From positions 1-26,984 of IMG/VR virus record IMGVR_UViG_3300020045_016803: 26,984 bases of DNA, one strand, 5' to 3'. The DNA comes from a virus. Taxonomy: Duplodnaviria > Caudoviricetes. The notes below the pieces were generated by a model. That model searched no databases, was not told the DNA's origin, and worked only from the letters and a program-made list of their open reading frames with translations. Positions 1-26,984 of the stretch are shown piece by piece. The position numbers were made by a program, and so were the translations under genes. Within the stretch, counting starts at the first letter, position 1. Each line of letters starts with the position of its first letter.

Positions 1-121
1 CTACACACACGTGTATGTGGTAGCCACGGCGCCCGACACTGGAAACGACATAATACTGGACGCGGTACATACCGCCTACGACGAGGAAGTACCATACTAC
101 AAGAAAAAGGACATACGCCCA
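1..121. repeat. Terminal direct repeat, left copy (circular contig overlap)
   Basis: Identical to 26864-26984; an ORF reads through the join. Confidence 0.97.
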
Positions 122-232
122 CAACAGCAAAACCACCAGATCGGAAACACAACACCAGCCACGCCGGCACGATTCCCGTTTTTAAAAATCGGAATATTGG
201 TTTGCCTGGGCTACCTGATAGCACGACAATGA
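1..232 (+). CDS. 3' part of transglutaminase-like cysteine protease (starts at 26427, wraps the junction; 222 aa in total)
   Basis: THVYVV and ILDAV supply the His and Asp of the triad with GDCKS upstream; C-terminal hydrophobic anchor; stop overlaps next ATG (ATGA 229-232). Confidence 0.85.
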   Translation, partial: YTHVYVVATAPDTGNDIILDAVHTAYDEEVPYYKKKDIRPQQQNHQIGNTTPATPARFPFLKIGILVCLGYLIARQ

Positions 233-1362
233 CCCGTATCAGCACCATACACGGCTTACCGCCCTACGACGAATGGGCCGACCGCAGCGCCAACGTGGCC
301 GCCAAGGACTATTTTCCGTATCTGTCCATGACGCGGGGCCAGTTGGAGTTATCCCTGCTGCGCCAGCGGGCACAGATGTACGCCGGGTTCTATCCCGAGT
401 ACGCCACCTACACCAAAGCCGTGGCCATGCTCGACCGCGCCCTGAAAGACGGCGATACCGGCGTGAACTACATAGGCGCAGTGCCCGACGAATTGCAAGG
501 ACTGGCCGCCACCATCACCCGCGCCGCCGCGCAGCGCCAACCGGCCAGCCGCGCCGGTATGCTCACCGCCCCACGGATGGGCGAAATCATACCCGTGCAG
601 CAGCGATACGAAACCTGCATACAGCGAAGCCTGTCCGAAAAAGGGCTGCTTACTACACAGCCTCACCCATCCGACACATTAAAAACATCGGTATGGAACA
701 CCCAAAAGGGCGCCCGGGAAAGCATCATAGCCAAATGCCGAAAACTGTTCGAAGTTGAAAAAATACTGAACAGCGGCATTGAGAAAAGTGGCCACCACAT
801 GCTCTACAAGACCGTGCCCAACGGCTACGCAGTGCCCGGCGACGTGCGTACCAAACGAATCCTGCACCGCACCGGCGTGGAAGGCATGGCCGTAGTGGGC
901 GAGATAGACGCCGCCCTTATGTATATGTGGGTGGAAAACGGCATTATGCTGAAAAACACCGAGGCCCAAATAGGCCCGATGAACAGCACCTACTCCAGCC
1001 TGTACCTATCCCCCGACCCACAGAAATCCCTCGACTTATTCAAAAAATGGATGAACGGCCAACCCATTTCTGCACAGGAGAAATGGAACGCCGGAAAGGT
1101 TGCCGGTATCGGCGTCATTGACCCCATTACGGCCAAAATCATTTTGGCTATTGCAGGCGCATTGGTCGCCGCATTCGGGTTTTTGAAATCACTACGCGAG
1201 CAAAAAGACTACGCAATGGTGCAGGCCCAAGGCTTCGCCACCGATGCGTACAGCGCCAGCGAAGGGGATTGGCTTGGACAGTCATCCACGGGAGGTTTGG
1301 ACAACGGTATGTTACTGGCTATCGCAGCCGGTGGCCTGTTACTGGCAACACAAGACAAATAA
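229..1362 (+). CDS. Putative membrane-associated virion protein (~377 aa)
   Basis: ATG coupled to upstream stop; two C-terminal hydrophobic segments (IILAIAGALVAAFGFL, MLLAIAAGGLLLA); position in structural operon. Confidence 0.75.
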   Translation: MTRISTIHGLPPYDEWADRSANVAAKDYFPYLSMTRGQLELSLLRQRAQMYAGFYPEYATYTKAVAMLDRALKDGDTGVNYIGAVPDELQGLAATITRAAAQRQPASRAGMLTAPRMGEIIPVQQRYETCIQRSLSEKGLLTTQPHPSDTLKTSVWNTQKGARESIIAKCRKLFEVEKILNSGIEKSGHHMLYKTVPNGYAVPGDVRTKRILHRTGVEGMAVVGEIDAALMYMWVENGIMLKNTEAQIGPMNSTYSSLYLSPDPQKSLDLFKKWMNGQPISAQEKWNAGKVAGIGVIDPITAKIILAIAGALVAAFGFLKSLREQKDYAMVQAQGFATDAYSASEGDWLGQSSTGGLDNGMLLAIAAGGLLLATQDK

Positions 1363-1411
1363 CAAACGCCGGTAGCGTCCGGTACACTCTAACACACAAC
1401 AAACAAACACT

Positions 1412-1693
1412 ATGGCAATCGCAAAAAGAACTGCAAAACGCCGCAAAACCACGGGCGCACCGAAGCGTAAGCGGAAAGCGCGGGTCGGTGTGGCCGCAGC
1501 ACCCAAAACCACGGTAGTGCTGTCCGGCTCCAAATTTACAAAATCGGCTTGCGGGCTGAACAAAACGACCGCCTCAAAGCGGGCGGACAACATCCGTAAA
1601 GCAGGCAAAAAAGCCCGTGTAATCAAAGCAGGCAGTACCTACTGCGTGTACACCGGGAGCAAATCCAAAGCGCTTACGCGCCGCCGCGCCTGA
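1412..1693 (+). CDS. Very Lys/Arg-rich small protein, candidate genome-condensing/core protein
   Basis: 93 aa, KRTAKRRKTTGAPKRKRKAR, almost no acidic residues; A/C-rich leader. Confidence 0.7.
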   Translation: MAIAKRTAKRRKTTGAPKRKRKARVGVAAAPKTTVVLSGSKFTKSACGLNKTTASKRADNIRKAGKKARVIKAGSTYCVYTGSKSKALTRRRA

Positions 1694-1730
1694 TTCAAAA
1701 AAGTCATTCACAATCAAAAACTACATAGCC

Positions 1731-2117
1731 ATGTGTGGCTGTAACAAAAGCATCAACGGTATGAGCAAAAAAGGCATTAAAGGCTTTGGCAGTATCGGCA
1801 AAAACCTGGGCGAACTCGTGCCCGTTTTGGTCGGCTACGCCGTCGGGCAGATAGCCCAAAAACAACTTACTTTTCTTTCGGCAAACCCCACCACGGGCAA
1901 CCTGGTAAAACTGGCTGCCGGCCTGTTCATGGCCGGAAACAGCGGCTTTGTCGGTGGCATGGCCAAGGGCGTGGCCCTCAACGGCGCCGCCGGGTTTGTC
2001 ATGCCGATTCTGGAACAGTCAGGCCTCGGCCTGCTGCCGCCCGGTGTACCGGCTCGGTACATTGCCGGCATCCCGGAACCGGACCAAATCCAAACCGGCG
2101 AAACCCTGGGCTACTAA
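1731..2117 (+). CDS. Gly-rich membrane virion protein
   Basis: Several Gly/Ala-rich hydrophobic helices; directly upstream of the capsid candidate. Confidence 0.7.
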   Translation: MCGCNKSINGMSKKGIKGFGSIGKNLGELVPVLVGYAVGQIAQKQLTFLSANPTTGNLVKLAAGLFMAGNSGFVGGMAKGVALNGAAGFVMPILEQSGLGLLPPGVPARYIAGIPEPDQIQTGETLGY

Positions 2118-2175
2118 GTAGCCGAAAAACCAACTTTCACAATTTCAACATTCACGCAAAATCATTCAACACGAT

Positions 2176-2907
2176 ATGAAGCAAATTTTGCCTTCAGATG
2201 CCGGACGCTCCAACTACCTGCGCGTAGCGCAGTCGGTGGCCGCCCAATTGGGCATAGACATCAACCTGTTCATCCAAAACTACAAGTTTTACGACGATGA
2301 ACTGAAATTGTACAAATCGCTGTCACCCAGCCAAAGCCAGTACAATTTCAACCCCGTGCGCGGCCTCGACAGCGACGTGCCCACATCCAACCTCATGGAC
2401 AAAAGCGACCTGTTTGCCGTCACCGGCGTGGGCCTCATTTTCACCCGCGCCACGTATGCCAGCGCCAGCCAGTCGTTGAGCCAATACGGCAACTACGAGG
2501 AATACACATTCCCGTATGCCGCCGTGTTTTCCGGCTCCAACGAGGCCACCGGCCTGCAAAACATTGTGCGCGGTGTGGTGCAGTTGGCGGTCAACTCTGA
2601 CCAACAATGGAGCATCCCAGCCGACCGCATGGTGTACAAAAATCAGTACATCAATGCGCAAGCGCAAACGATCACCTACGGCGCCGACACGGAAGCGGAG
2701 GGCATTTTGCCCCTCAACGCCATTGTCATCATGGACGGCGAAAACCAGAACACGCTGACGGTGAACCTTGCCCCAGGCGGCACGCTCACCAACATTGACG
2801 GCAACACCAACGCCACTACCCGCAACATTTTGGGCGTGAAACTTATCGGTTTCCGCGTGCGCAACGTGGCAAACGGTGGTTTCAATGCGGCAAACTGCCG
2901 GGTGTAA
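2176..2907 (+). CDS. Candidate major capsid protein (jelly-roll type, inferred)
   Basis: 243 aa, beta-strand-like pattern, no TM, strongly biased codons, followed by a terminator; the ORF is secure, the fold is inference. Confidence 0.55.
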   Translation: MKQILPSDAGRSNYLRVAQSVAAQLGIDINLFIQNYKFYDDELKLYKSLSPSQSQYNFNPVRGLDSDVPTSNLMDKSDLFAVTGVGLIFTRATYASASQSLSQYGNYEEYTFPYAAVFSGSNEATGLQNIVRGVVQLAVNSDQQWSIPADRMVYKNQYINAQAQTITYGADTEAEGILPLNAIVIMDGENQNTLTVNLAPGGTLTNIDGNTNATTRNILGVKLIGFRVRNVANGGFNAANCRV

Positions 2908-2936
2908 CCCAAGAAGGGACGATTTTTTCAATATAT

Positions 2937-2973
2937 CGGGCGGCGGCTCTCACGCCGCTGCCCGTATTTTTTT
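2937..2973 (+). terminator. Rho-independent terminator
   Basis: CGGGCGGCGGC-tctcac-GCCGCTGCCCG followed by a T-run. Confidence 0.85.
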
Positions 2974-2999
2974 CCATCGAACAAACACACACGCATACC

Positions 3000-3437
3000 A
3001 TGTGTAAATGTGCAGCACACCGTTGCTATGAGTTGCAAGAGATTGTAACCAGCAGCGCCCAAGTAGCATTGCCGGACGATACCCGGATACGCCGAAACCT
3101 GGTAACATCTATCCAGGTGCAGCCCAGCGACCCGGCAGGCTCGTTGACGTTCCTTAGCCCGCAGGGCCGAACGCTTGCATCCTGGTCGGTGCTCAATTCA
3201 TCGTACCTGAATGTGGTAAACCAAAACGGCACCAAGTTGGCCCCTATCCCGCTTTCGGCGCTGATCCGCACCACGTCCGACCAGGAACCGCTCGCGGTGT
3301 CGTGGCAACAGATTGACCCGACACAATCATTCATCCAAATCAACACCACGGCAGCCGGCTACAATGCCGCCCATGCCATCATGCTAATGTGGGGCCTTGC
3401 TTGTGATGAATGTGGCGTCACGCCAAACAACCTGTAA
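3000..3437 (+). CDS. Candidate second/minor capsid protein (small beta-rich)
   Basis: 145 aa, beta-rich, Cys clusters at both ends; adjacent to capsid candidate. Confidence 0.5.
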   Translation: MCKCAAHRCYELQEIVTSSAQVALPDDTRIRRNLVTSIQVQPSDPAGSLTFLSPQGRTLASWSVLNSSYLNVVNQNGTKLAPIPLSALIRTTSDQEPLAVSWQQIDPTQSFIQINTTAAGYNAAHAIMLMWGLACDECGVTPNNL

Positions 3438-3454
3438 AAAACCTGAAACCGTCC

Positions 3455-4225
3455 ATGATTACAAGTTTTGAAAATCTGCGCAATTGGTTTGTACAAGCCC
3501 AGCGTACCGACGAACCGGTACACTGGAACCTGTACAGCCATATACCAGGGGAAGCCGAAAAGCGGGTAGCGTTCAACGTGGCGGTAGACGATACAAACGC
3601 CTCTTTCGAAATGCTTATGAGCAATATACGAATGATGAACAACCCAGACGGCAAGCAATTCAAAGTGATGCTTTACCCCAAGAACAAGGCAAACAACCCC
3701 TTGGCGCATTCGATAGTGCAGATTTTCGAAAAAACAAACGGATCTTCTGGAACCGCCCTACCTGCACCTGGCATTGCCGGGCTGCCGGTAGGAATGGGCA
3801 GTATTCAGGAGTATGTACAGAAAGAGGTGCAACTGGAGCGGATGAAATGGGAAATTGACGAATTGAAAAGCGCACTGGCCCAGCCGAACACCGGTTGGGA
3901 GCGTGCAGTAGAAACCATCGGCGCTATACCTGGTATAGAGAAAGCCATACAGGCATTGGTGGTTGGATTGGTGACGAAATTCAACCCCGCAGCCACGCCG
4001 GCCATACAGGCAGCCATGAACGGCACGCCTGAACCGTCGGCGGGCTACGTGGGCGAAATGGATACCGACGACGAACCGGCAGGCGACCCGCAAACCGTGT
4101 TTGCCACAAACATCCAACAGGCTGCCGCTACCCTGAAAACCGACCCGCTCACACTGGCACAGCGCATAAACCGGTTGGTGCAAACAAACCCCGAAATCGC
4201 AAAACAACTTTTGGAAAATGGGTAA
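3455..4225 (+). CDS. Hypothetical structural-module protein with coiled-coil
   Basis: ATG 3455 after upstream stop; helical C-terminal half. Confidence 0.7.
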   Translation: MITSFENLRNWFVQAQRTDEPVHWNLYSHIPGEAEKRVAFNVAVDDTNASFEMLMSNIRMMNNPDGKQFKVMLYPKNKANNPLAHSIVQIFEKTNGSSGTALPAPGIAGLPVGMGSIQEYVQKEVQLERMKWEIDELKSALAQPNTGWERAVETIGAIPGIEKAIQALVVGLVTKFNPAATPAIQAAMNGTPEPSAGYVGEMDTDDEPAGDPQTVFATNIQQAAATLKTDPLTLAQRINRLVQTNPEIAKQLLENG

Positions 4226-4529
4226 CGTAACGCTCAATTTGAAACTTCGGCCAACGACGCTGCCGCCCATGACGGCCAACGGCATCCTGACGGACATAGA
4301 GGGCGTGGCGGCAATCATATTCCAAAACACTGGTGACAGCACGTGTAGAATTTTTAACGGCATGTGGACGCTGCTACCAAACGGCGGCGTACTGGCCCTG
4401 AATGTGACCGAGCATGTAGGAAGCATTGATTTGCTAAACCTGCAAGTGACATTTACAGGCGGCACGACCAACCGCCTGGAAATACTGACCATGCGCCAAG
4501 GAAAAGACAATACGGTACTAAATTGCTAA
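4218..4529 (+). CDS. Small beta-rich virion protein (vertex/penton-like?)
   Basis: 103 aa, overlaps upstream stop, alternating hydrophobic pattern. Confidence 0.6.
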   Translation: MGNVTLNLKLRPTTLPPMTANGILTDIEGVAAIIFQNTGDSTCRIFNGMWTLLPNGGVLALNVTEHVGSIDLLNLQVTFTGGTTNRLEILTMRQGKDNTVLNC

Positions 4530-4542
4530 CCAACACCACCAC

Positions 4543-4839
4543 ATGGCACTTTTACAGGCATGGAACCCCAGCAGCGGGGGCAGCGGTTCGACGCTCGCCT
4601 GGCAACGCGACCGAGTGGTGGAAACCAATCCGTTTTCGAGCGGCTATACCATCACGCTGACCGAGGAACCGGTAGACGCAAATAGTATTGTAGTGTGGTC
4701 GCAAGGCTTGTTACTTGATACCGACGACTACGACTACACAGCCCCCGACACCATAGAAATACTTTTTTCAGGCAACCCTGCCACCGACACACCAGACGGA
4801 GAATGGGTTTTTTGGGTACAATATCCATATGCAACGTAA
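4543..4839 (+). CDS. Small acidic beta-rich virion protein
   Basis: 98 aa, immediately before the spike gene. Confidence 0.65.
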   Translation: MALLQAWNPSSGGSGSTLAWQRDRVVETNPFSSGYTITLTEEPVDANSIVVWSQGLLLDTDDYDYTAPDTIEILFSGNPATDTPDGEWVFWVQYPYAT

Positions 4840-7800
4840 AATACACAACCTGTTACTGGCCGCTCTGGCCTCCCTTCTCCTGGCAATTCCGCAACGGGCC
4901 GGGGCGCAGTGTCCCGGCCCAAGCCAGCGTACCATGCTCATCAACCTGCAACGTGCCAACGTATTCGGCGGCACCCGAGCAGGACAAATACCGCTCACCG
5001 ACACCTGCGGAAACCAGCGGTATGTGCGACAGGTACAGGTCAACCTCGATACCATCAACTACATACCGGCGCAGACGGGCAACACGGCAAACCTGTCCGA
5101 ATTTGTTTTTGATACCACGGGCGCCCTGTGGTACATTGATTGGAAGGGCGAAGCAATCGAAATGCAGGGCGGCGCCGCATGTGATCAGGATTTTTTGCAA
5201 ATTTCTGACGCCTCTTGCCCGGATAACATCAACGACAGCATCTACCACTACAAATACACGTCCATCGGCGCCCGATACGTGTGGCCAGGGGCCACGTTTT
5301 TGGTGAACGACAGCACCAACGTGAACGGCGCTTTAATGGTCATACAAGGCGACCGCGCCGTAAAACTGGCCCTGTACGACCTCACAAACGAACAGTGGAC
5401 AATGCTTTACGGAAACAACACGGACTTATCCGTGTATTTGCCCGACGGCGGCGCTTTCAATGTCACCACGGCCACCGGCACGCCTACCACGGCGGCAGCC
5501 GACATAAACCATTTCCAGGTAAATACCCTTGATAGCACCGTCACGATGAACCAATACCCCAACACGCGCCTGGATACCCAGACTGTAGCAAATTTTTTGT
5601 ACACGGATGATATTGGCACGATCAGAAGCCAAAGTGTTGATTCGTTCCCACTTGCTGGTCGTGGGGGAATTTATACTGGTAGCGGATTTGTTCCTGATTC
5701 CACACATGCCGAAATTGCCTTTGGTGGGTTTTTCCAATTCGGATACCCTACGGGGGTATTTGATCCCGCTTTTAGGATCACAGACAACCCGCCAACAACA
5801 GCCAGGCAAATAGATATGTACAGCACAAACGTGGCTGTTCAGATAAAGCCTAACACGATAACCGCCACGGCGCAAGACGAATTAAGTGCAATTGTAGATG
5901 ATGGCAATGGAACAGCCGGCAGGTTTGATGTTTTCCCTGGGTATGTCGGCCTGTATGTAGATAGTGTGGCATCTTCAACCGGATGGTCTAGGTTTGTAGC
6001 AACAGCAGATTATGCAGAACTTAATGCGTCGGACGGAGGCACTGGTGGAAGTGCATTGTTAAGGGCCTATAAAACAGCCGGTGTAGATGCTCCATACATC
6101 AATATGGCAGTAAATTATACTGCGGCAATAAATCCAGACAATTTAATTGTTATTGATACGGGTGGCGTTTGGATTAAAACAGGCGCATCTGAATACGGTA
6201 TATCTGGGCAAGTATTGCATACGGATGGACAGCGCACATATTGGGACGATGCAAGCGGAACAAGTGTGAATATATACAACAGCGACGGCAGTATAAGTAC
6301 CCAGCGCACCGTAACCCTATCAGATACCGTCCTATGGGACATAGCCAGCGCAGCCGGCGCTTTCCAGATTGAGGGACTAAACAATAGTTATTTCAGGCAG
6401 TCGGACAACGCAATAGTGACGGGTACGGGTGGCGCATCGTTCAATCTTGGCAGCGGAACACCCATTGCAATGTCCATGAGCCTGGACGCCGGCACGGCTC
6501 GTGTAACAGACAACCGGGCCGGGAAAGTTGGTATTGAATATGCCAGTGCCGGGTATGGAGCAGATTTTACCGATAGTACATTGGTGCACAGGGGCTATGT
6601 AGCAGATATGATTTCAGATAGTATTGCTGGTTCTCCAGCAAATACAAATATATACAACAGTGACGGAAGTATAAGTGTACAGCGTACCGTAACGCTGTCT
6701 GATGAATTAATATTTGATGCTGCAAACTCGGCAAGCGGAATTACATTTAATAGCTTGATTGGAACATCTTTTGAACTATATGAAGATAGGGCTTTGATTG
6801 GAGATTTAGGTAATTCTTTATTTGGTATTGCCCTAAAATATGACGCCTATTCTGGCGATATGTTTTTGGGTAATGTTTTTTCGTCTAACGATGAGTATTT
6901 CTACAGCGGATCGGGAGGGATTGGTATTTTTTCCCCAGCATCTTCTTACTTCATTGGTGGTGGTTCTACTATTATTTCGGTTAGTGGTACCGGTTATTTT
7001 AAATTTGATGATTTTAGAACCTCTAAAACTGGTATAGAATACGCAAGTGCAGGGTATGGAGCAGATTTTACCGATAGTACATTGGTGCACAGGGGCTATG
7101 TTGCAGATATGATTTCAGATAGTTTGCCTGCAAGCTTTGGCGATATTTTACAGGGTGGAAATAGTTTTGGGTCTAATATGACAATTGGCACAAACGACAA
7201 CAACGCGCTAAACATTGAAGTAAACGGAACAACAGGCTTAACGCTCGGTACAGACTATAAATTAGTGGCTACAGCCACGGTGGCGAATACGAACACGGTA
7301 GCAGATCGTTATACTATTCGTACTAACTCCAGCGGCACCCCTTCAACAAGTTTTGGAGGAGGCATACTATTCCAGGGAGAAACCACGACAACTGATAACC
7401 AGGATATGGCTCGAATTTCGTCATATTGGACGACCGCTACGCACGCAACAAGAGAGGCGGCGGTGTCTTTTCAAATACAAAATGGCGGCGGATCACTTGA
7501 AGAAGTTGTAAAAATAGATCGTGCGTCAGTATCGGGTGGTAGCATATATATAGGTCAATCTTCGCCGGTAATTATTTCTGCAAATTCGTTAATTCCTTCG
7601 AGTAACTTTATCGTTGGGAGTTCAGTTAGTACCCTAACGTTATCATCTTCCGCAAGTTCTAACCCTTCATGTATATCGTTCGTAAGTTCAGCCAGTGGCG
7701 CAACATCAACCAGCGGAATTAATTTTGGGGGGGGAACCGCGTACACGCAAACATCTGGGACAAGGAACTATGTTAATATTAATTCTGGTTTTGCGCCGAC

Positions 7801-8326
7801 GTCTGGCACCGGGGAACACAACCAATTTGTTTTTAACGGGACATTTAACCAAACTGGTGGCGCATCTGGCATAACAAGAAATATACACCTAAACCCAACA
7901 CTTACAGCAGTATCAGATTTCCGTGGCATTGACATTGCCTACTCAAACAGCAGTGCCAAAGGCGTGTACCAATCCGGCGCAAGCACGACAAATAACTTTG
8001 TTGGCGCTACTCGCTTCGGTTCCACAACCACCGCCACCGATAAACTGGAAGTAACTGGAAACCTTGCCCTAACCGATGCCGGAAATAAATTGAAAATAGC
8101 CACTGGCAGCAATGCCTCAATTGGTACTTCTACCCTAGTGGCAGGGACAGTGACAGTATCCACAACTGCGGTTTTGAGCGACAGCAAAATTTTCCTTACC
8201 ACTGCTGTGGCCGGTGGCACGCTCGGGATTTTGAGTGTAGGAACAATCACCAACGCAACTTCATTTGTCATAAACTCAAGCAGCGCGTTAGATACCTCGG
8301 AAATAAATTGGCTAATCATAAATTGA
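4829..8326 (+). CDS. Large spike/receptor-binding protein with Sec-type signal peptide
   Basis: 1165 aa, G/S/T/N-rich; N-terminus MQRK-hydrophobic-AGA|Q; internal duplicated modules; lower-GC 3' two-thirds. Confidence 0.75.
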   Translation: MQRKIHNLLLAALASLLLAIPQRAGAQCPGPSQRTMLINLQRANVFGGTRAGQIPLTDTCGNQRYVRQVQVNLDTINYIPAQTGNTANLSEFVFDTTGALWYIDWKGEAIEMQGGAACDQDFLQISDASCPDNINDSIYHYKYTSIGARYVWPGATFLVNDSTNVNGALMVIQGDRAVKLALYDLTNEQWTMLYGNNTDLSVYLPDGGAFNVTTATGTPTTAAADINHFQVNTLDSTVTMNQYPNTRLDTQTVANFLYTDDIGTIRSQSVDSFPLAGRGGIYTGSGFVPDSTHAEIAFGGFFQFGYPTGVFDPAFRITDNPPTTARQIDMYSTNVAVQIKPNTITATAQDELSAIVDDGNGTAGRFDVFPGYVGLYVDSVASSTGWSRFVATADYAELNASDGGTGGSALLRAYKTAGVDAPYINMAVNYTAAINPDNLIVIDTGGVWIKTGASEYGISGQVLHTDGQRTYWDDASGTSVNIYNSDGSISTQRTVTLSDTVLWDIASAAGAFQIEGLNNSYFRQSDNAIVTGTGGASFNLGSGTPIAMSMSLDAGTARVTDNRAGKVGIEYASAGYGADFTDSTLVHRGYVADMISDSIAGSPANTNIYNSDGSISVQRTVTLSDELIFDAANSASGITFNSLIGTSFELYEDRALIGDLGNSLFGIALKYDAYSGDMFLGNVFSSNDEYFYSGSGGIGIFSPASSYFIGGGSTIISVSGTGYFKFDDFRTSKTGIEYASAGYGADFTDSTLVHRGYVADMISDSLPASFGDILQGGNSFGSNMTIGTNDNNALNIEVNGTTGLTLGTDYKLVATATVANTNTVADRYTIRTNSSGTPSTSFGGGILFQGETTTTDNQDMARISSYWTTATHATREAAVSFQIQNGGGSLEEVVKIDRASVSGGSIYIGQSSPVIISANSLIPSSNFIVGSSVSTLTLSSSASSNPSCISFVSSASGATSTSGINFGGGTAYTQTSGTRNYVNINSGFAPTSGTGEHNQFVFNGTFNQTGGASGITRNIHLNPTLTAVSDFRGIDIAYSNSSAKGVYQSGASTTNNFVGATRFGSTTTATDKLEVTGNLALTDAGNKLKIATGSNASIGTSTLVAGTVTVSTTAVLSDSKIFLTTAVAGGTLGILSVGTITNATSFVINSSSALDTSEINWLIIN
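6269..7123 (+). repeat. Intragenic tandem module duplication (A-x-B-A'-y-B')
   Basis: NIYNSDGSISxQRTVTLSD at 6269 and 6647; GIEYASAGYGADFTDSTLVHRGYVADMISDS at 6530 and 7031. Confidence 0.92.
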
Positions 8327-8329
8327 AAC

Positions 8330-8587
8330 ATGAAAAACGACCTCATTCTTGGCATTATCATTGGCGCATCTGCTGTTATCATACTCACGCGCCGCAGCAA
8401 ACCCGCTCCGGCTATCATTCAGCCCACCGTACAGCATGGCCGGCATCTACCCTTACCGGCAGGCAATAGCGGCAACCTGACCGGGTATCGTGGCAATGTG
8501 ATGATTGCCCGTAAGCCGCAGCGGCCACAAACCTACAACCAACTCACCAACCCAGGCTACCCCATGCCGGGGTGGCAGGCCATATAA
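8330..8587 (+). CDS. Small N-terminally anchored membrane protein
   Basis: LILGIIIGASAVIILT followed by RRSK. Confidence 0.7.
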   Translation: MKNDLILGIIIGASAVIILTRRSKPAPAIIQPTVQHGRHLPLPAGNSGNLTGYRGNVMIARKPQRPQTYNQLTNPGYPMPGWQAI

Positions 8588-8593
8588 CACGCC

Positions 8594-9013
8594 ATGCCAA
8601 TCACATCTGTAAACATAGGCGGCAAATACTTCCCAATCGGGCAGATATTCGATAAAACCCTGTACGCTTCAGGGCCGGTAAAGATTTACCGAAGCGTCAT
8701 CGGGCAGCCGGTGTACACTGCCAACGCTGGGCAGCCGGTGGGCATCGTGTACAGTTATGTGGAGCGCGACGGCATATTGTGGTGGCAATTCCTCGACACC
8801 TACAATAAACCGTACTACGCCAAACACAGCCCTACGGCATTTTCGTTGTCGGCCATCGTCAACCAGGGCAGCCAGACACACCAGGAGATCGAGGAACAAA
8901 AAGAGAAAGACAAAAACCCGGTACTGTCCACCATCGCCGAAACGGCACAGCGCATACTTATGCCGGTGGCCATCGCGGCGGCGGTGTACTACCTGGTAAA
9001 AAGCACCAAGTAA
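8594..9013 (+). CDS. Small protein, SH3-like beta domain (tentative) plus C-terminal TM
   Basis: GIVYSYV..DGILWWQF pattern; C-terminal ILMPVAIAAAVYYLV. Confidence 0.65.
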   Translation: MPITSVNIGGKYFPIGQIFDKTLYASGPVKIYRSVIGQPVYTANAGQPVGIVYSYVERDGILWWQFLDTYNKPYYAKHSPTAFSLSAIVNQGSQTHQEIEEQKEKDKNPVLSTIAETAQRILMPVAIAAAVYYLVKSTK

Positions 9014-9654
9014 TGGCACGCCTCACCCCCGAATTTTTCCGAACAATCCTGAAAATGGAAGGCGGCTACCAGGCAATGCCGGACGATTCCGGTAACTACG
9101 CCTGCGGGGCATTGGTGGGAACCAAATATGGCGTGTCGGCGGTGGCGTATTCATCCTGGGTAGGCCGGTGCCCCAGCGCGGCGGAAATGAAGGGCATCAG
9201 AGAGCAAACGGCACGCGACTTCTACGCCAACTACTTCCATAAATACAACCTCTACCCCATCGAGAACCAGCAGTTTTTTGAACTACTGGCCAACAACACA
9301 ATGGGAAGCCCAGCGGGTGCGGCACGTGCTGAACAGCGCGCGCTCAACACATTGGGCTACAACGTCACCGTGGACGGCGCCCGAGGCCCGCAAACCGTAG
9401 CTGCACTAAACGACGCCTGGCGAAAAAACCCAGCGGGCATTTACAACGCAGTGCGCGAAGAATGGGTAAAGCACCTGCATAGTATAAACAAGCCGCAGTT
9501 TCTTGTGGGGTGGATGCGCCGTTTGGACACTTACTTTCCGCCTATGTCCGTGGCTGCCGGTGGGCTTGGGTTGGTGTTGGTCGGGTTAGGGGTTTGGTAT
9601 GCAATTAAATATTTGAAAAAAAATCGAGCATGGGCAACACAGAAAAAACATTAA
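9013..9654 (+). CDS. Glycoside hydrolase family 108-like lysozyme with peptidoglycan-binding motif and C-terminal TM
   Basis: EGGY...DSG...TKYGV catalytic motif; VDGARGPQT; FLVGWMRR; hydrophobic tail. Confidence 0.88.
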   Translation: MARLTPEFFRTILKMEGGYQAMPDDSGNYACGALVGTKYGVSAVAYSSWVGRCPSAAEMKGIREQTARDFYANYFHKYNLYPIENQQFFELLANNTMGSPAGAARAEQRALNTLGYNVTVDGARGPQTVAALNDAWRKNPAGIYNAVREEWVKHLHSINKPQFLVGWMRRLDTYFPPMSVAAGGLGLVLVGLGVWYAIKYLKKNRAWATQKKH

Positions 9655-10088
9655 TAGTAATTGCCGGTCTTTTTTTGCTGCCTCGCCTTGCTCGGGCACG
9701 CATCGGCGCTATTTCCCCAGAATCAGCCGCATTAGGTAAGTATTACGATACCTATAATATTAAGCCCAACGGGCGGGTAGATCGGCATTGGGGCGTTTTG
9801 AATATTGTGCCGCGCCATTGGGGCGTAGAGCTGCGAAAAGAAAAGTATTTTATCTACCCTACCGAAGCGGTAAAGCATTTTAACCTGCACAGTATCGAGT
9901 TTGGAAACTGGACAAACCAGGAGGAACGCCAGGGCTTCATGTACGCTACCCTCGTAACGCTGCGCGACATTGGAGAAATTACCGGCATACCACAAAGCAA
10001 ATTAGGTATGAGAAAAAAACTGGCGCTGTCATTCGGCGCCCGTGGTAATGGAGGAAATGCATTTGCAAAAAAAATCAGAAGTAATTGA
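9630..10088 (+). pseudogene. Truncated polyvalent-protein (LPD1-associated metallopeptidase-like) fragment with N-terminal TM
   Basis: EFGNW..QEERQ...LALSFGARG.G motif ends abruptly at an A8 run; no HExxH in any frame. Confidence 0.5.
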
Positions 10089-10176
10089 ATACAGCAAACG
10101 CGAGGCTACGCTGTTCGGACGGAAACGCCGACGCACAGGCCGGTAAAATATTTTTTCACAATCAAAACACACACTC

Positions 10177-10470
10177 ATGGCAGACACACCAACACCAACG
10201 GCAAAGCCCTGGTATCAATCAAAAATTATCCTGCTGGCCGGCGCTTCAGCGCTCATTTTCGGCGGCAATGCCCTTTCGGGTTTCCTCACCGGCGCAGGCG
10301 TCACCCCCGAACAAATAGACGTCATCCGCGCCCAGCAGCCGCAAATTGCCGAGGCCGTGGAGCAGTTCAAAACCGGCCAAAACATTTTGAACACCATTTT
10401 GGGCGCGCTTATGCCTGCCCTTATTATGATAGCGCGGCGCTGGTGGACCAACATTCCACTGCTGCGCTGA
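10177..10470 (+). CDS. Holin-like two-TM membrane protein
   Basis: KPWYQSK followed by TM, second TM near C-terminus; last gene of the operon, near the lysozyme. Confidence 0.6.
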   Translation: MADTPTPTAKPWYQSKIILLAGASALIFGGNALSGFLTGAGVTPEQIDVIRAQQPQIAEAVEQFKTGQNILNTILGALMPALIMIARRWWTNIPLLR

Positions 10471-10505: not shown

Positions 10506-10539
10506 CGGCCTGCGGAACAAGTCCGTGGGCCGTTTTTTT
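10506..10539 (+). terminator. Terminator between convergent structural operon and integrase
   Basis: CGGCCTGCGGA-acaag-TCCGTGGGCCG-T7. Confidence 0.8.
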
Positions 10540-11728
10540 ATGGCTCCATTATCCGGGTTTTGATCTTTGCAAAACCATCGTTTACCAGGTCGGGCAGGTT
10601 GTACAGCATGGTGGTGCCCGGGTTGATATGCCCAGCCTGCTGCATTACCTGGGGCAATGGCAGCAGGCGCAACCAGTCAGTCACGCCGGTATCTTTGAAC
10701 GAGTAAGGGCTGATACCTTCCACATCGCGCAAGCGGCCAGAATCCAACAGCGCATCGAGGCAGCGCCGAAACCGTTTCCATGCCCACGTGCGCGGCCATG
10801 CCTTTTTGGGGTGCGGCGCTCCACCGTGGCCAAAAACATAGTAATTGGTTGGGATATCGGCAAACCGTTTGTCCTGCAGAATTTCCCGGACGTAGGCCGT
10901 CATGGTCGGGAATCGTTCCCGCTTGGTCTTGCTATGCTGGGCAGCCAGGCAAATAATGCCCTGCGACATATCAAAATCCCCTGCACGCAACCGGCGCAAC
11001 TCCGTACCCCGCAGTAGGCAATAGTATTCCAGCGTGACGAACAAAAAAAGGTAGTAGTCGTGCTCCCACAGCCATGCAGCTATGGCTGCCCGCTCGTCGG
11101 GCGTGCATTTGCGCCGAGACTTGCCCAAAACAGGTTTTTTGGTAATACCCCGAAACGGGTTTTCGGCCAACACTTCCCGCTTTACCAGTTCGTTGAAAAC
11201 CGTGCTTATTTTGGTTTTGTAGTTATTCCAGGTACGGTTTGAAAGATCGGCGCCCGACTTGTTTGGTCTGGTGGCTACATAATCAAGAAAATCGAGCGCG
11301 TGTCGCTTCGAAAATTCCGACACCGGCATGGCCCCTACCCTACCCTGTTCTGTCCATCGCAGGAACACGCCGCAAATGCTCCGGTAGTCCTTCCGGGTTT
11401 CTTCCCGATCCGTTTTCAATTTTATGGCCAACGCCATTTTCACGGCATCGCAAAGCGTTTGCGTGGCGGCTCGGGCTTCAATCTGTTCAGGCGATTGGTA
11501 CGGATACCCGGCAGGGAGCAAGGCGTTTATGCGCCCGATCAGCGCCGCAGCCTGCCGTTTTCGCTCCCTTAGTTCGTGGATTCTGTTTAGGTCGCCTGTT
11601 TCCCGGTGGCGCTTGCGCTGCCCGTCTTTCGGGTCAGTCTGGTAGTACACAATCTCCCAGCGGTCTTTTTTCATCGCCAACCGAGCCGGCAGGTACCCCA
11701 TGCGGGTGGACAATTTTTTTTTCTCCAT
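10538..11728 (-). CDS. int: Tyrosine recombinase / phage integrase
   Basis: LRGTEL (R), SKTK (K), YSFKDTG (variant of HxxR), QAGH, TMLY; SAM-like region (RTWNNY, ENPF); ATG 11728 preferred over TTG 11785. Confidence 0.93.
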   Translation of the reverse strand: MEKKKLSTRMGYLPARLAMKKDRWEIVYYQTDPKDGQRKRHRETGDLNRIHELRERKRQAAALIGRINALLPAGYPYQSPEQIEARAATQTLCDAVKMALAIKLKTDREETRKDYRSICGVFLRWTEQGRVGAMPVSEFSKRHALDFLDYVATRPNKSGADLSNRTWNNYKTKISTVFNELVKREVLAENPFRGITKKPVLGKSRRKCTPDERAAIAAWLWEHDYYLFLFVTLEYYCLLRGTELRRLRAGDFDMSQGIICLAAQHSKTKRERFPTMTAYVREILQDKRFADIPTNYYVFGHGGAPHPKKAWPRTWAWKRFRRCLDALLDSGRLRDVEGISPYSFKDTGVTDWLRLLPLPQVMQQAGHINPGTTMLYNLPDLVNDGFAKIKTRIMEP

Positions 11729-11751
11729 TGCTTTGGTGCCTTTTTTTGCCG

Positions 11752-11929
11752 TGACACGGTGGTGACACAGTTTTTTTGGCAGCAATGGTAAGTGATACGT
11801 TTACAGTGGTTTGTAAGGTTTTGTGAGCGGGATACGAGAACCCACCCCACCCCACAGACCACCCACGGAGATACCATAAACGCACTTTTACTACTGCCAA
11901 AAAACACAGCCCTGACACAGTTTTGACAC
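11752..11929. promoter_or_regulatory. attP region with arm-type repeats
   Basis: TGACAC pairs 11 bp apart on both sides of the core (11752/11763 and 11913/11924); TGACACAGTTTT occurs twice. Confidence 0.65.
11825..11839 (-). other. attP core = 3' end of a tRNA-Gly
   Basis: Minus strand TCTCGT-ATCCCGC-T-C fits the T-stem, acceptor strand and U discriminator of tRNA-Gly (E. coli Gly-GCC ends TCTCGTTTCCCGCTCCA); ~100 bp from the int start. Confidence 0.75.
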
Positions 11930-11939: not shown

Positions 11940-12326
11940 CTATTTTTTTTTCAGTTCTGAAAGTTTCTTTTCCAGGGCAGCCACACGCGCCTGCAATTCT
12001 TCCACCACCCCTACCCCACCGGCTGCTTTTTGCTGGTATGGCATGGCCGGCTCATGCATGGCCGCTACCTGCTCTGCATGCTGATACGCAGGTGTGGAGA
12101 GCAAAAACATATCTCCAGTGCCTCTAATCAACCAATTCAGATCAAGGTCTTTAAAGCCATCTGAAATAGCAAATATGAAATTTGCAGATAGGTTTTTTTT
12201 GCCCATCAAAATTTGGCTGAAATAGCCTTGTGTGAACCCGAACTTTTTTGCAAAAGCCTCTTGGGTTAGTCCGTGGGTATCCATTACATCGCGCAGGCGC
12301 TTACCCATTGCCTCTAATTTTGTCAC
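11940..12326 (-). CDS. Cro/C1-type HTH repressor
   Basis: RLRDVM...LTQEAFAKKFGFTQGYFSQILMGKK and LNWLIRGTGDMF; C-terminal coiled-coil. Confidence 0.9.
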   Translation of the reverse strand: MTKLEAMGKRLRDVMDTHGLTQEAFAKKFGFTQGYFSQILMGKKNLSANFIFAISDGFKDLDLNWLIRGTGDMFLLSTPAYQHAEQVAAMHEPAMPYQQKAAGGVGVVEELQARVAALEKKLSELKKK

Positions 12327-12374
12327 TTTTACGACAATTTACAAGTATTTGAGCGGATTAAATCTATTTGTAAT

Positions 12375-12382
12375 TACATTTG
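12375..12382 (+). promoter_or_regulatory. Bacteroidota -7 promoter element for the early operon
   Basis: TACATTTG (TAnnTTTG), overlapped by the palindrome TGTAATTACA at 12369-12378. Confidence 0.6.
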
Positions 12383-12411
12383 CTTGCAAATTACACAAAA
12401 TAGAACATACA

Positions 12412-12648
12412 ATGCAAAATGAATATTTGAGTACATACGATAAAATTAAGGCCTACGACCTCATGGAGGCCTTAGAAATGCAAATTGAAGCATGGCGAGA
12501 GGAAGGGGTATCTGAAACGATGATCCGCAAAGCACTTGCTAAAAATGCGGACACCAGTTTGAGCAAACTTATACGCCGGGAGGCATTTAAGTTGCTTGAA
12601 AGCCATGAAACGAAGGCTGCCGAAAAACTGCTACAAATGCAGTCATAA
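12412..12648 (+). CDS. Small helical protein divergent from repressor (Cro-like by position)
   Basis: 78 aa; GVSETMIRKAL resembles a recognition helix. Confidence 0.65.
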   Translation: MQNEYLSTYDKIKAYDLMEALEMQIEAWREEGVSETMIRKALAKNADTSLSKLIRREAFKLLESHETKAAEKLLQMQS

Positions 12649-15142: not shown

Positions 15143-17947
15143 ATGATCCACGCCGACACTGTACAGGCCATCCGAGAACAGGCCAGAATTGAGGACGTTG
15201 TAGGGAAGTTTGTTACCCTCAAAAAAAAGGGCGCAAACCTGACGGCATGCTGTCCGTTTCACACAGAAAAAACGCCATCGTTTGCCGTCAACCCGGCCCG
15301 AAATATTTTTAAGTGCTTCGGCTGCGGGGAGGGTGGCGACAGCATTACTTTCCTAATGAAGCAAGGCAAAACCTACCCGGACGCCTTGCGATACCTGGCC
15401 GACCTGTACCGAATCGAGGTACGCGAAAACGGCCAAACTCCCGACCCAAAACACGACGAAAAAACCCAACTGCGCACCACTGCATCCGTGCTGACGGCGC
15501 ACTGGTGTATCAGTGAGGTGGACGACAATCCAGGGCGGCGCTACTGGCTGGACCGGGGTTTCAAAGAGGAAACCCTGGACACGTTCCAGGTGGGCTACTG
15601 CGACGGCAAGAAGCCCGCCCACGTCACCGACGAACAACTGGAAGCCGTGGGCGCCATCAACGAAAAGGGCAATATGTCCATGTGGAAGCGCTCCATAATA
15701 CCGCTGCACGACCGCAGCGGCCACCCGGTAGGGTGGGCAGGGCGCACCGTGGAAAGTGGCAAGGACGTGCCCAAGTACATCAACAGCCCGGAAACGATCA
15801 TTTACCAGAAAAGCCGCACGCTGTTCAATGTGCACCGAGCCGCGCCGCACATACGCCGAACGGGCCAAATTTGGATTGTAGAGGGCTACGCCGACGTAAT
15901 GGCACTTTGGCAGGTAGGCGTCTGCAATGCCGTGGCCCTGTGCGGTACCGGCCTCACAGACGAGCACGCCGCCGAAATCAAGAAATTCAACGGAGACCGG
16001 AACCTGACAATCATTTTGGCTCTCGACAACGAGACGCGCAAAAGCGACGACACCTACAAAAAGGCCGTGGCTTATGCCTGGGCAAAGGCACTGCAAAAAC
16101 TGGTGCCCATCGGCGAAGTTAAGCGAGTAGAATACCCGAAGGCCTGCAAGGATATGGCCGACGTGGTAAACCGTGGCATTGATCCGGCCACACTGGAAAA
16201 AACCGACGCCATACAGTCATACGTGGCCGACTGGAAGGCCGACAACGAGAACGCAAGCCCGGTACAAATAGCCGAATTTCAGGACGAAGTGGCCACCATG
16301 CTGGCCAACGTGAAGCGCGACAACGTGCGCACGATATACTGCAACACCCTTGCCGGCGTGCTTTCAATGTCGCCGCGCGACCTTGACAAACGGGTGAAGG
16401 AACTACGCACCGAGCGCGAAACAGAGGAAGAAAACAAGCGGGTGAGCGAGTACCGGTACATCAAGGTAGGAGACGACTACTACCAACGCCTCATCGAATA
16501 CGACATTTTCACCAAGAGCACCACACCGGTGTACAAACGCCGGAAACGGCAGGAATTGGCCACCGAGGGCGTGGCCATAGGGAGCATCGAGAGGTTCAAT
16601 GACTGGATCATAGAACCAAGCCACTTGCAATACAGGCGCACTATTGAAATACCACACGGCGGCGAAACTTACCGGTTTTTCAACTACTACCAACCGCTCC
16701 CGTACACGCCAAAGGCATTTGATTTGCCCGAAGCATTTTATCGCGATCCGGTAAACTTCGATTATGAAAAAATACCGGAAATTGCCAACATTGCCCGGTT
16801 TTTCAAACACATCTTCGACTTTGAAACGTACCGAAACCGGTACCTTACAATTGGCTGGGATTGGGTGGCGCTATGCTACCTGCAACCAACCCAGCGCATG
16901 CAGGCGCTTGCGCTTGTCAGCAGTGAGGAAGGCACCGGGAAAAGTACCTTTATCAACCTCATGCTGGCACTGTTTGGCCAAAACGCCACCAAGACCGAGG
17001 CAAGCCGGATTGCGTCCAACTTTAATGCCATGAGTGCCGGCAAGGTGCTGCAATGCGTGGAGGAAACGAAAGACGAAAAAGGCGGCATCGAGAACCGCCT
17101 TAAAGACCTGATTACGGCCTACGAGCAGGTAATGGAAGCCAAACACCAGGACGCGAAGGTGGTAAAGGCTTTTTGCAAGTACGTGTTTGCCTCAAATCAC
17201 GAGGAAGGATTTATGAAGGTAGGCAGCGCCACCACTCGTTTTTTTGTGATGAAGGTTAAGCCAATCCGGCAAAAAATTACCGACTTTGAGGAAAAAATGT
17301 ACTTAGAAATACCGTATTTGCTCCATTTCCTGCAAAAAAGGGGAGTTATCACACAAAAGTCGGATCGGCTGTATTTTGACCCGAAACTATTGGAAAACGA
17401 GGCGCTACTGAAACTGCGGCAGGCCTCAAAAGACCAGGTACAGCAGGTCATGGAGGAATTATTTAGCGCGTTGTTCCTGCGCTGCGAAATCACGGACCCT
17501 GTTCTGAACTTGAGCAGCCAATATTTAAAACTACTCATGTGCGCCTACGGCGGCAAGTCCTACGAGCAGAAAACGCCCGTGTACTTCCAGAACACCGCCA
17601 CCAGAGATATGAAACTGACCTACCGAGAGGCTCCCAGCAAACGCGATACCCTGGAACTGGAGGGCATCCACTCCGATGCCTGGATAAACGCCGACAGTTG
17701 GACGTACAACCGGCGCCGCACGCAGGCCCGTTTCATCGAGGTTCCAGTGTGGATGTTTTGCACACCGCAGGACGTAGCCGCCAACTACTCCGCAAAAACA
17801 TTTGCCGACCTGATACTGAACCTGAAAACCAACCTGGAAAAACTGATACAGGACTACGGGGTGGCGCCATCCGATTGGCTCTATAACCTGGAACAATTCA
17901 CCACAAACACCCAGCCCGAAGGGGAGGGGGAAAAACTGCCTTTTTAG
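15143..17947 (+). CDS. DnaG-type primase fused to SF3/D5-like helicase
   Basis: CHC2 Zn finger (CPFH..KTPSF...CFGC), KYINSPET, TOPRIM IVEGYAD/LALDN/KDMAD; Walker A EGTGKST, Walker B CVEE, motif C FASN. Confidence 0.93.
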   Translation: MIHADTVQAIREQARIEDVVGKFVTLKKKGANLTACCPFHTEKTPSFAVNPARNIFKCFGCGEGGDSITFLMKQGKTYPDALRYLADLYRIEVRENGQTPDPKHDEKTQLRTTASVLTAHWCISEVDDNPGRRYWLDRGFKEETLDTFQVGYCDGKKPAHVTDEQLEAVGAINEKGNMSMWKRSIIPLHDRSGHPVGWAGRTVESGKDVPKYINSPETIIYQKSRTLFNVHRAAPHIRRTGQIWIVEGYADVMALWQVGVCNAVALCGTGLTDEHAAEIKKFNGDRNLTIILALDNETRKSDDTYKKAVAYAWAKALQKLVPIGEVKRVEYPKACKDMADVVNRGIDPATLEKTDAIQSYVADWKADNENASPVQIAEFQDEVATMLANVKRDNVRTIYCNTLAGVLSMSPRDLDKRVKELRTERETEEENKRVSEYRYIKVGDDYYQRLIEYDIFTKSTTPVYKRRKRQELATEGVAIGSIERFNDWIIEPSHLQYRRTIEIPHGGETYRFFNYYQPLPYTPKAFDLPEAFYRDPVNFDYEKIPEIANIARFFKHIFDFETYRNRYLTIGWDWVALCYLQPTQRMQALALVSSEEGTGKSTFINLMLALFGQNATKTEASRIASNFNAMSAGKVLQCVEETKDEKGGIENRLKDLITAYEQVMEAKHQDAKVVKAFCKYVFASNHEEGFMKVGSATTRFFVMKVKPIRQKITDFEEKMYLEIPYLLHFLQKRGVITQKSDRLYFDPKLLENEALLKLRQASKDQVQQVMEELFSALFLRCEITDPVLNLSSQYLKLLMCAYGGKSYEQKTPVYFQNTATRDMKLTYREAPSKRDTLELEGIHSDAWINADSWTYNRRRTQARFIEVPVWMFCTPQDVAANYSAKTFADLILNLKTNLEKLIQDYGVAPSDWLYNLEQFTTNTQPEGEGEKLPF

Positions 17948-20346: not shown

Positions 20347-20636
20347 AAGTGTATAAGTGTAGTTTTAAGGTACTTTTAAAAGTAAATAATTAAATATCAA
20401 TACTTTATCTAACTACACTTTATACTACACTTTAAACAAAAGTAAAATGCAAAGTGTAGTACAAAGTGTAGCACATTTTGGCAGTTTGAGTTACAGGTGC
20501 CCAGGCAACTACACTTTGGCGTGCTACACTTTGAAACGAACTACACTTTGGTTGTTCAAAGTGTAGTTTCTCGCAAGGTTTTGCACGTCAATTGATTAAG
20601 ATGCCAAAAAAGGCAAAAACTACACTACTACACTTT
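20347..20636. repeat. Iteron-like repeat cluster, probable replication origin
   Basis: CTACACTT(T) forward at 20413, 20425, 20509, 20524, 20541, 20628 and reverse at 20355, 20452, 20464, 20559, plus partial copies; AT-rich, non-coding. Confidence 0.8.
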
Positions 20637-20957: not shown

Positions 20958-21182
20958 ATGGCTATTTGTCCCGATGGGTGCATAAGTAAAAAGTGGGTGT
21001 TTTTCGTGCTGCGGCCCGGATGCACTACCTACCGCGCCGACGTGTTGCGCCAATTTTTCACACAGCAACGTTTGGAGCGCTGCGGTATCCAGCCCGACGA
21101 GTTTCCCCGCATTCGGGTTTTTAGCCCGGAGGCCTCATCGGCAATCAAAAACGACCTTAGACAACTCAACTTTGTAGAATGA
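20958..21182 (+). CDS. Hypothetical protein (74 aa)
   Basis: Stop overlaps next start (ATGA). Confidence 0.5.
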   Translation: MAICPDGCISKKWVFFVLRPGCTTYRADVLRQFFTQQRLERCGIQPDEFPRIRVFSPEASSAIKNDLRQLNFVE

Positions 21183-23942: not shown

Positions 23943-23981
23943 CTAATAAAAATTTTTGAGTGTGAATGTGTAATTTGTGAG

Positions 23982-24000
23982 CAAATGTAATGTATATTTG
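23982..24000. promoter_or_regulatory. Back-to-back -7 promoter elements
   Basis: Minus TACATTTG (23989-23982) and plus TATATTTG (23993-24000). Confidence 0.65.
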
Positions 24001-24721: not shown

Positions 24722-24754
24722 TGCGGATTTTTTGCCCCAGAAACATTCGACAAA

Positions 24755-25917: not shown

Positions 25918-26430
25918 ATGAAAGCACGCGAGGTACTTTTGTGGGGTGGACTTGTCGGTGTAGCATTCTTGTTACTGCGCCGCCAATTAGGCCGTTTCAC
26001 CGTAGGCAATGCCATCATCGACAGCCTTCGGTTGGAACCCGGCGGCGTACTCATCAATGTGAAACTGCCCATCGTCAACCGCTCCGACATTGCGGTACCA
26101 ATTTCGGGTTTCATTGGCGTGCTCACCTACAACGGTACCCAGATCGGTACCACCTACCTGAATCAGGCTACCATAATCCAACCCCGCAGTGTATCGGCCC
26201 CCGTTTTCGGTACACATATCAGTATGCTATCCGTGCTCACCAGCACGCCGTTGCTTTCCCTGCTCAACAGTCTGGCACAGAAGTACCTGGGCATTTCTAT
26301 TCCAGGCATCCCAGCCAACAAGCCGCTGGAGGGCGACGCCATTGCCAAGTACCTCGGAGGGCTACGCCTTACCGGTACGGTGTACGCCGCTAACTTGAGC
26401 ATTGACATAGACCAACCGCTGACCGCATGA
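25918..26430 (+). CDS. LEA_2/WHy-like domain protein with N-terminal TM; first gene of structural module
   Basis: VKLPIVNRSDIAVPISGFIGVLTYNGTQIG matches the LEA_2 pattern. Confidence 0.72.
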   Translation: MKAREVLLWGGLVGVAFLLLRRQLGRFTVGNAIIDSLRLEPGGVLINVKLPIVNRSDIAVPISGFIGVLTYNGTQIGTTYLNQATIIQPRSVSAPVFGTHISMLSVLTSTPLLSLLNSLAQKYLGISIPGIPANKPLEGDAIAKYLGGLRLTGTVYAANLSIDIDQPLTA

Positions 26431-26984
26431 CCCGACCACGCCGCGCCGCACTCCATCGAGGGCGCAGCGGGGCCACCTCGTGCGACCCGGCGCAGATCAT
26501 ACGCCACAGCCCCCAAACCGAAATACTGCGGCACCGCAACGGCGGCACCGACGACATCATTGAGGCAATACTGTACATGGACGCGCACAGCGCCGAATGG
26601 ATCACCGACCGCGTAGAATGCCTGCGCGGCGACACCGACCACGACACGCTGCGCAACGTGTGGGCATTCGTGACCCACACCGTACCAAACGCAAACCTTC
26701 GGTACCGGACCGACAGACCAGGGCACGAGCGCGTAAAATCGCCAGGTGCCCTGTACTCCAGCGGACACGGCGACTGCAAGAGCTTTAGCATAGCCATAGC
26801 GGCCATGCTGCGCACGCTCGGCATACCATACCGGTACCGGTTCACGGCATACGCGCCCGGCGACTACACACACGTGTATGTGGTAGCCACGGCGCCCGAC
26901 ACTGGAAACGACATAATACTGGACGCGGTACATACCGCCTACGACGAGGAAGTACCATACTACAAGAAAAAGGACATACGCCCA
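26427..26984 (+). CDS. Transglutaminase-like cysteine protease, 5' part (continues at 122-232; missed by ORF track)
   Basis: My translation: VWAFV...YRTD...VKSPGAL...GDCKSFSIAIAAMLRTLGIP...THVYVV...ILDAV (Cys-His-Asp). Confidence 0.88.
   Translation, partial: MTRPRRAALHRGRSGATSCDPAQIIRHSPQTEILRHRNGGTDDIIEAILYMDAHSAEWITDRVECLRGDTDHDTLRNVWAFVTHTVPNANLRYRTDRPGHERVKSPGALYSSGHGDCKSFSIAIAAMLRTLGIPYRYRFTAYAPGDYTHVYVVATAPDTGNDIILDAVHTAYDEEVPYYKKKDIRP
26864..26984. repeat. Terminal direct repeat, right copy
   Basis: Identical to 1-121. Confidence 0.97.

Follow-up and report, generated by a model that had tools for sequence, protein, structure and literature searches.

The window analysed here, the whole 26,984-nucleotide IMG/VR record IMGVR_UViG_3300020045_016803, is likely the complete circular genome of a temperate, tailless virus. 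An earlier note, based on the sequence alone, had read it as a Bacteroidota virus with a portoglobovirus-like assembly strategy, and this reading is supported by two predicted jelly-roll proteins and the lack of a recognisable packaging motor. As these jelly rolls are accompanied by no recognisable head, tail or motor gene, the virion is likely a membrane-lined shell around protein-condensed DNA. A tailless jelly-roll particle is highly likely and an internal membrane, argued by analogy, quite probable; the co-assembly model as a whole, in which a jelly-roll shell closes around condensed DNA with no motor, is favoured with moderate confidence. The circle is closed and complete, as the note had stated: the terminal 121 nucleotides are identical (Table 1), the record's classification is that of a complete genome with direct terminal repeats, and the unique span is 26,863 bp. 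The integrase, repressor and lysozyme were all confirmed by family matches in Pfam and PHROGs.

The candidate capsid proteins are the products of two adjacent open reading frames (ORFs, named by their first nucleotide), ORF 2176 and ORF 3000. The coordinates given for this beta-rich pair of 243 and 145 residues were correct, and both proteins model as beta-sandwiches. The ORF 2176 model (predicted local distance difference test, pLDDT, 74; predicted template-modelling score, pTM, 0.77) contains one eight-strand jelly roll spanning residues 37–229, and ORF 3000 (pLDDT 87) likewise models as a single jelly roll. In fold searches the portoglobovirus SPV1 was foremost, as the top structural match of ORF 2176 and the tied top match of ORF 3000; we infer that the matched 178-residue SPV1 chains are VP4. 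Where double-jelly-roll proteins matched the ORF 2176 model, the match covered one barrel. HK97 capsid proteins were not among the fold-search lists for ORF 2176, an absence that does not amount to exclusion. Searches of PDB sequences with ORF 2176 and with a 144-row profile returned nothing credible, including no detectable similarity to SPV1, and in 50,697 phage records tblastn gave zero matches, whether the query was ORF 2176 or one of three distant homologs. Virome surveys that rely on markers would overlook or misassign this capsid family, because ORF 2176 has no Pfam or NCBIfam match and PHROGs searches with 144 family members gave two single weak rows, neither of them real. ORF 2176 has 50 close homologs, and a profile search extended the family to 249 clusters at 50% identity; the 144 rows are those of capsid alignment A3, from which the repeat proteins P0108 and P0115 and fragments were left out.

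The SPV1 shell is built from VP4 hexamers and VP10 pentamers (PMC8459092). By analogy, ORF 2176 may be the hexon and ORF 3000 the penton, a division towards which the evidence leans slightly. The two proteins could instead both be major capsid proteins that form mixed capsomers, as in sphaerolipoviruses or the membrane-containing phage SSIP-1, with a procapsid filled by an unrecognised motor, be it the helicase domain doubling in this role, a non-P-loop protein (ORF 229 or ORF 3410) or a host translocase. Such an arrangement is unlikely: ORF 3000 is penton-sized and the two adjacent jelly rolls are not detectably paralogous (hhalign 2.3%), while the structural alignment of ORF 2176 with SPV1 is longer than that with VP17 (156 versus 119 residues).

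The motor itself was not found. The hallmarks of Caudoviricetes (large terminase, portal, HK97 capsid and tail genes) were missing from 40 ORFs searched against Pfam and PHROGs and 29 searched against NCBIfam, as the note had stated for terminase, portal and tail genes. A search with the PF03237 terminase profile is not counted, as it missed a terminase-like gene visible in the record G001. The only credible Walker A motif is, as claimed, that of the primase-helicase (the serine variant SEEGTGKS); a scan of 99 frames of at least 100 residues returned this motif and two reverse frames overlying real genes. No conserved P-loop was present in the consensus lines of seven late-gene family alignments. 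Six-frame searches for AAA_25, DUF87 (HerA) and Pox_A32 were empty in the window, G001 and the complete relative G002; as a control, AAA_25 matched SSIP-1 gp40 only (one of four records), and phmmer with gp40 found nothing below E 0.3. The lack of P-loops in the late-gene alignments, and of any FtsK-, HerA-, A32- or RecA-type gene in the window or G002, argues further against a motor-filled procapsid. Only two weak family matches point the other way. Both fall on the early ORF at 12232-12648, which has no Walker A motif: one to AAA_2 (E 0.046, below the cut-off) and one to a PHROG labelled ‘virion structural protein’ (E 0.012). The Walker A scan is not fully sensitive, because its hydrophobicity filter lost the same helicase motif in the relative G003:C9. 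The window thus shares with Portogloboviridae the lack of a recognised genome-packaging ATPase, P-loop searches leaving non-P-loop motors possible, and it is reasonably likely that the virus has no ATP-driven packaging of its own.

The late operon comprises 16 ORFs. The earlier note began it at base 1; the true start is the LEA_2-like gene at 25918. The transglutaminase-like gene spans the circle junction (26427 to 232), encoding 222 residues with zero internal stops. Indirect signs of a membrane and a nucleoprotein core are seen in the composition of the late proteins: a hydrophobic 17-residue segment occurs in eight of the 16, and one protein has an isoelectric point (pI) of 12.0, which agrees with the many small membrane proteins and single very basic protein reported in the note. 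This basic protein, ORF 1412, is by its composition a candidate nucleoprotein, and basic ORFs occupy the matching position in L008 and L009. ORF 229, which has no family in Pfam, PHROGs or NCBIfam and an uninformative Atlas model (pTM 0.24), is probably a virion membrane protein. In the transglutaminase-fold enzyme C117, H149 and D166 are invariant in all six aligned sequences (the window and five loci), and a maturation protease is its probable function. A Gly-hydrophobic-Gly motif is not enriched in the late proteins of the window (four occurrences versus 2.6 expected; 260 of 1000 shuffles reach four). The motif recurs, at varying positions, in homologs of ORF 229 (7/9) and ORF 1731 (6/9), and is also found in ORF 1412 homologs and SSIP-1 late proteins.

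As no packaging ATPase was recognised, the shell would be assembled around already condensed DNA. The primase-helicase encoded in the early region would copy the circle from a putative repeat-rich origin near 20.4 kb, and the 93-residue basic protein, to judge by its composition and by analogy with SPV1, would condense the product. Late proteins with evident membrane segments would then gather a presumed layer of host membrane around the nucleoprotein. Homo-hexamers of ORF 2176 would dock through their N-terminal helices, with ORF 3000 pentamers completing the shell. In this step the folds are predicted and the capsomer roles follow the analogy with VP4 and VP10 of SPV1 (PMC8459092). The anchored enzyme, with its Cys-His-Asp triad, may trim virion proteins. 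Finally, the 1165-residue mosaic protein would bind the receptor, and the lysozyme and holin-like protein would lyse the cell.

The nucleoprotein might alternatively bud outward through the inner membrane and be coated in the periplasm, at least some virion proteins being exported by Sec. This route, although improbable, would fit the 17 of 144 capsid homologs, from at least two clades (for example P0118, P0193 and P0242), that carry an N-terminal extension of at least 35 residues with a basic-then-hydrophobic, signal-peptide-like start. It would also fit the fibre candidate, which contains internal repeats and begins with such a segment (window 4829-4910) followed by Gln, as do its homologs in G002 (L001), G003:C9 (L024) and L005/L006. 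A signal-peptide-like segment followed by Gln is a Bacteroidota pattern. The extension is, however, absent from the window capsid protein and from 127 of the 144 aligned rows, and the tailed phage in G001 has large proteins with similar N-termini, so a signal-like start is not specific to membrane viruses.

A relationship to SSIP-1, a phage that the note did not name, also emerged. SSIP-1 is described as tailless, with an internal membrane and T=49 symmetry, and unclassified (PMC6260650, PMC5332951, PMC6356626); the genome is circular double-stranded DNA (dsDNA) and a single jelly roll is suspected (PMC6260650, PMC5332951). The window transglutaminase matches SSIP-1 gp34 (E 4e-10), and gp34 was its sole match among the 50,697 phage records. 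The ORF 1731 family profile, compared with 57 SSIP-1 proteins, weakly matched gp44 (E 0.0011), which directly precedes the candidate capsid genes of SSIP-1, the same position as that of ORF 1731; the latter, judged by sequence and position, is likely a gp44 homolog. Both gp34 and gp44 are annotated as structural proteins. The top BFVD match of ORF 2176 is I1ZBH9, an unnamed protein of 211 residues (probability 1.00, TM-scores 0.42/0.48). From its length and accession range, we provisionally take I1ZBH9 to be, probably, the 211-residue structural protein gp46 of SSIP-1. At the sequence level ORF 2176 has no detectable likeness to gp45 or gp46 (gp46 is best of the 57 at E 0.17; hhalign 0.4%), and the similarity of ORF 3410 to gp33 (E 0.057) is not significant. 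A relationship between ORF 4218 and gp48, which look alike by eye, was unsupported (E 1.9).

The fetched loci represent eight distinct elements, namely G002 (the same as L001, L003 and L014), G003:C9 (the same as L002), L004, L005/L006, L007, L008, L009 and the end of G001; a DNA motif scan gave three loci, and L011 and L012, which have no capsid homolog, were dropped. In all eight an ORF 1731 homolog, the capsid gene and an ORF 3000 homolog follow in this order, down to 24-27% capsid identity, and the transglutaminase is present in all six whose loci extend to its place. Contigs of close relatives reach about 24-30 kb at most. This conserved gene order, together with the 16-gene late operon that includes fibre and lysis genes and the homology to two SSIP-1 proteins annotated as virion components, makes it very improbable that the window is a non-autonomous, plasmid-like or satellite element dependent on a tailed helper or vesicles, whose jelly rolls form something other than a capsid, such as a filament or cement. 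Of six sequencing runs listed for relatives, four were compared with the window: the freshwater, wastewater and biogas runs cover 23-24 of its 30 bins, mostly at 90-95% identity, and the sediment run contains short pieces only.

Integration is not fixed across the relatives. G003:C9 (L024, L025) is a complete relative of 26,597 bp with a 55-nucleotide terminal repeat and 59% capsid identity; it has no integrase match but retains a repressor-like helix-turn-helix (HTH) ORF in the same place, which suggests a plasmid-type prophage or lost integration. In a contig of a close relative from run X1, window position 10742 is joined to 12319, so that most of the integrase and repressor is gone, possibly marking a virulent variant. 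In G001 (63,018 bp) a module of tailed-phage genes occupies about 1-41 kb and a distant relative of the window about 43-63 kb; the record may be a mis-assembly, or one element may be nested in the other, or the two may be prophages in tandem. G003:C7 is another phage-like contig, distinct from these elements, whose integrase is related.

The host probably belongs to Bacteroidota. The best isolate matches of the primase are Cellulophaga phages, two of the three plasmid-collection matches of the integrase are from Persicobacter, the nearest Atlas cluster occurs most often in Bacteroidota and one homolog is labelled Tenuifilaceae. Leaders are A-rich, with Shine-Dalgarno matches at 0 of 35 starts versus 5.4% of random sites, a weak test alone. 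Both divergent switches contain TAnnTTTG, which we take to be a promoter consensus that points to Bacteroidota. Labels of metagenome-assembled genomes as Gammaproteobacteria and Anaerolineaceae disagree with this assignment and may be binning errors. No attachment site or host junction was found in four sequencing runs.

The remaining features are collected in Table 1. The integrase carries YSFK at the place where tyrosine recombinases usually have HxxR. A 25-nucleotide site with two copies, both situated between divergent genes and both including TAnnTTTG, is a probable operator/promoter, and the CTACACTTT cluster is a probable iteron origin of replication; the word has five copies in G002 and a variant in the lowest-GC stretch of G003:C9. 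Two 86-nucleotide repeats, 87% alike (24661-24746 and 25423-25508), lie in a region of small genes that is unmatched in both complete relatives, and may serve a variable gene cassette as sites of regulation or recombination. The products of three glycosyltransferase-like genes (19186-19902, 21179-22168 and 22469-23053) could act on the virion or on the host surface; both complete relatives retain two of these genes. The 152-residue accessory protein is missing from both of these relatives. Only four ORFs exceed 400 residues: the fibre, the integrase, a membrane protein and the primase-helicase.

Table 1. Positions of features in the window; late genes are listed from the first gene across the circle junction.
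Feature	Position	Strand	Basis
Terminal repeat, assembly overlap of the closed circle	1..121, copy 26864-26984	.	100% identity
LEA_2-like protein, N-terminal membrane segment, first late gene	25918..26430	+	LEA_2 E 0.014 (below cut-off); 6 homologs in loci
Transglutaminase-fold cysteine enzyme, 5' part	26427..26984	+	Pfam Transglut_core E 7e-9
Transglutaminase-like gene, 3' end and C-terminal membrane anchor	122..232	+	Junction read-through
377-residue conserved protein, hydrophobic helix near C-terminus	229..1362	+	8 homologs
93-residue very basic protein	1412..1693	+	pI 12.0; 31% Lys+Arg; 5 homologs
128-residue glycine-rich hydrophobic protein, directly before capsid gene	1731..2117	+	In 8/8 distinct related elements
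243-residue predicted single jelly roll, N-terminal helices, candidate major capsid protein	2176..2907	+	Model
145-residue predicted compact single jelly roll, candidate penton/second capsid protein	3000..3437	+	Model
Conserved protein of ~260 residues, likely coiled-coil stretch	3410..4225	+	Weak SSIP-1 gp33 likeness
103-residue beta-rich conserved protein, possible vertex component	4218..4529	+	7 homologs
98-residue acidic conserved protein	4543..4839	+	pI 4.05; 5 homologs
1165-residue mosaic fibre/spike candidate, C-terminal K1-lyase_C	4829..8326	+	Pfam PF24146 E 1e-21
Two small membrane-anchored proteins	8330..8587, 8594..9013	+	Hydrophobic segments
GH108 lysozyme, peptidoglycan-binding domain, C-terminal hydrophobic segment	9013..9654	+	Pfam, PHROGs, NCBIfam
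152-residue accessory protein, N-terminal hydrophobic segment	9630..10088	+	CLCA_X-like, below cut-off
97-residue protein, two hydrophobic segments, putative holin	10177..10470	+	
Tyrosine integrase	10538..11785	-	Phage_integrase E 9e-7 (Pfam, PHROGs)
HTH repressor, divergent from early operon	11940..12326	-	Pfam, PHROGs
25-nucleotide near-palindromic site, inverse copy 23967-23991	12373..12397	.	Repeat 92%
DnaG-type primase fused to DUF5906 helicase domain	15143..17947	+	Sole credible Walker A; family matches
CTACACTTT, nine copies in both orientations	20413..20636	.	Stretch of lowest GC

The group is undescribed in the full-text literature searched; subscription papers, supplements (including those on bioRxiv) and ICTV taxonomy proposals lie outside that search and may mention it. 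A layout with a single capsid gene and motor-free, membrane-and-nucleoprotein assembly has been proposed for the root of Singelaviria, and the living examples named are archaeal hot-spring viruses. The chances are about even that the window represents a lineage of bacterial viruses, of family rank, widespread and so far undescribed, with 249 or more capsid clusters (50% identity). Such a lineage would keep this ancestral assembly, bridge SPV1 and SSIP-1, employ a transglutaminase-fold maturation protease and, in some branches, have a capsid protein that a signal peptide directs into the membrane. If so, the design extends to bacteria and to ordinary habitats such as the freshwater, wastewater and biogas sources of the relatives, the orphan SSIP-1 gains a family context, and a mesophile becomes available in which to test whether 27 kb of dsDNA can be packaged with no motor.

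Among known systems, Sphaerolipoviridae, Simuloviridae and P23-77-like viruses are defined by two major capsid proteins and an FtsK/HerA-type ATPase (PMC5332951). Simuloviruses are circular and temperate. These families, with the Thermus viruses P23-77 and IN93 (Singelaviria), share single-jelly-roll shell proteins with the window, but membership of the Sphaerolipoviridae type fails on the ATPase, which the DUF87, Pox_A32 and Walker searches did not find. FLiP and the Odin group, like the window, are tailless with no packaging ATPase (PMC5894146); their genomes measure about 7-11 kb and their capsid fold is a double jelly roll, whereas ORF 2176 models as one eight-strand barrel. The window is related to SSIP-1, with which it shares a circular dsDNA genome, a gp34-like transglutaminase and a gp44-like protein before the capsid gene. 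By contrast, the SSIP-1 genome is larger (43.8 kb versus 26,863 bp), includes an AAA_25/RecA-type ATPase (gp40) among its structural proteins, which the window does not have, and contains adjacent genes of similar size (gp45 and gp46), a pair with no counterpart here.

SPV1 has a circular dsDNA genome, two single-jelly-roll shell proteins, no packaging ATPase, a candidate nucleoprotein, many membrane proteins, and glycosyltransferase and methyltransferase genes (PMC8459092, PMC8812541). The window has counterparts or candidates for these traits: its shell proteins and nucleoprotein are candidates, no ATPase was recognised and the genome is somewhat larger than the approximately 20 kb of Portogloboviridae. 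SPV1 infects Sulfolobales and is nonlytic; it has mini-CRISPR arrays, and a replication protein is not recognisable among its products. The window instead encodes a bacterial DnaG primase-helicase and a GH108 peptidoglycan lysozyme, an integrase/repressor switch and a predicted lytic exit; its 20 largest repeat families include no regularly spaced array, no dedicated search for mini-CRISPRs having been made. Although host, lysis and replication place the virus outside Portogloboviridae, it would work like a portoglobovirus.

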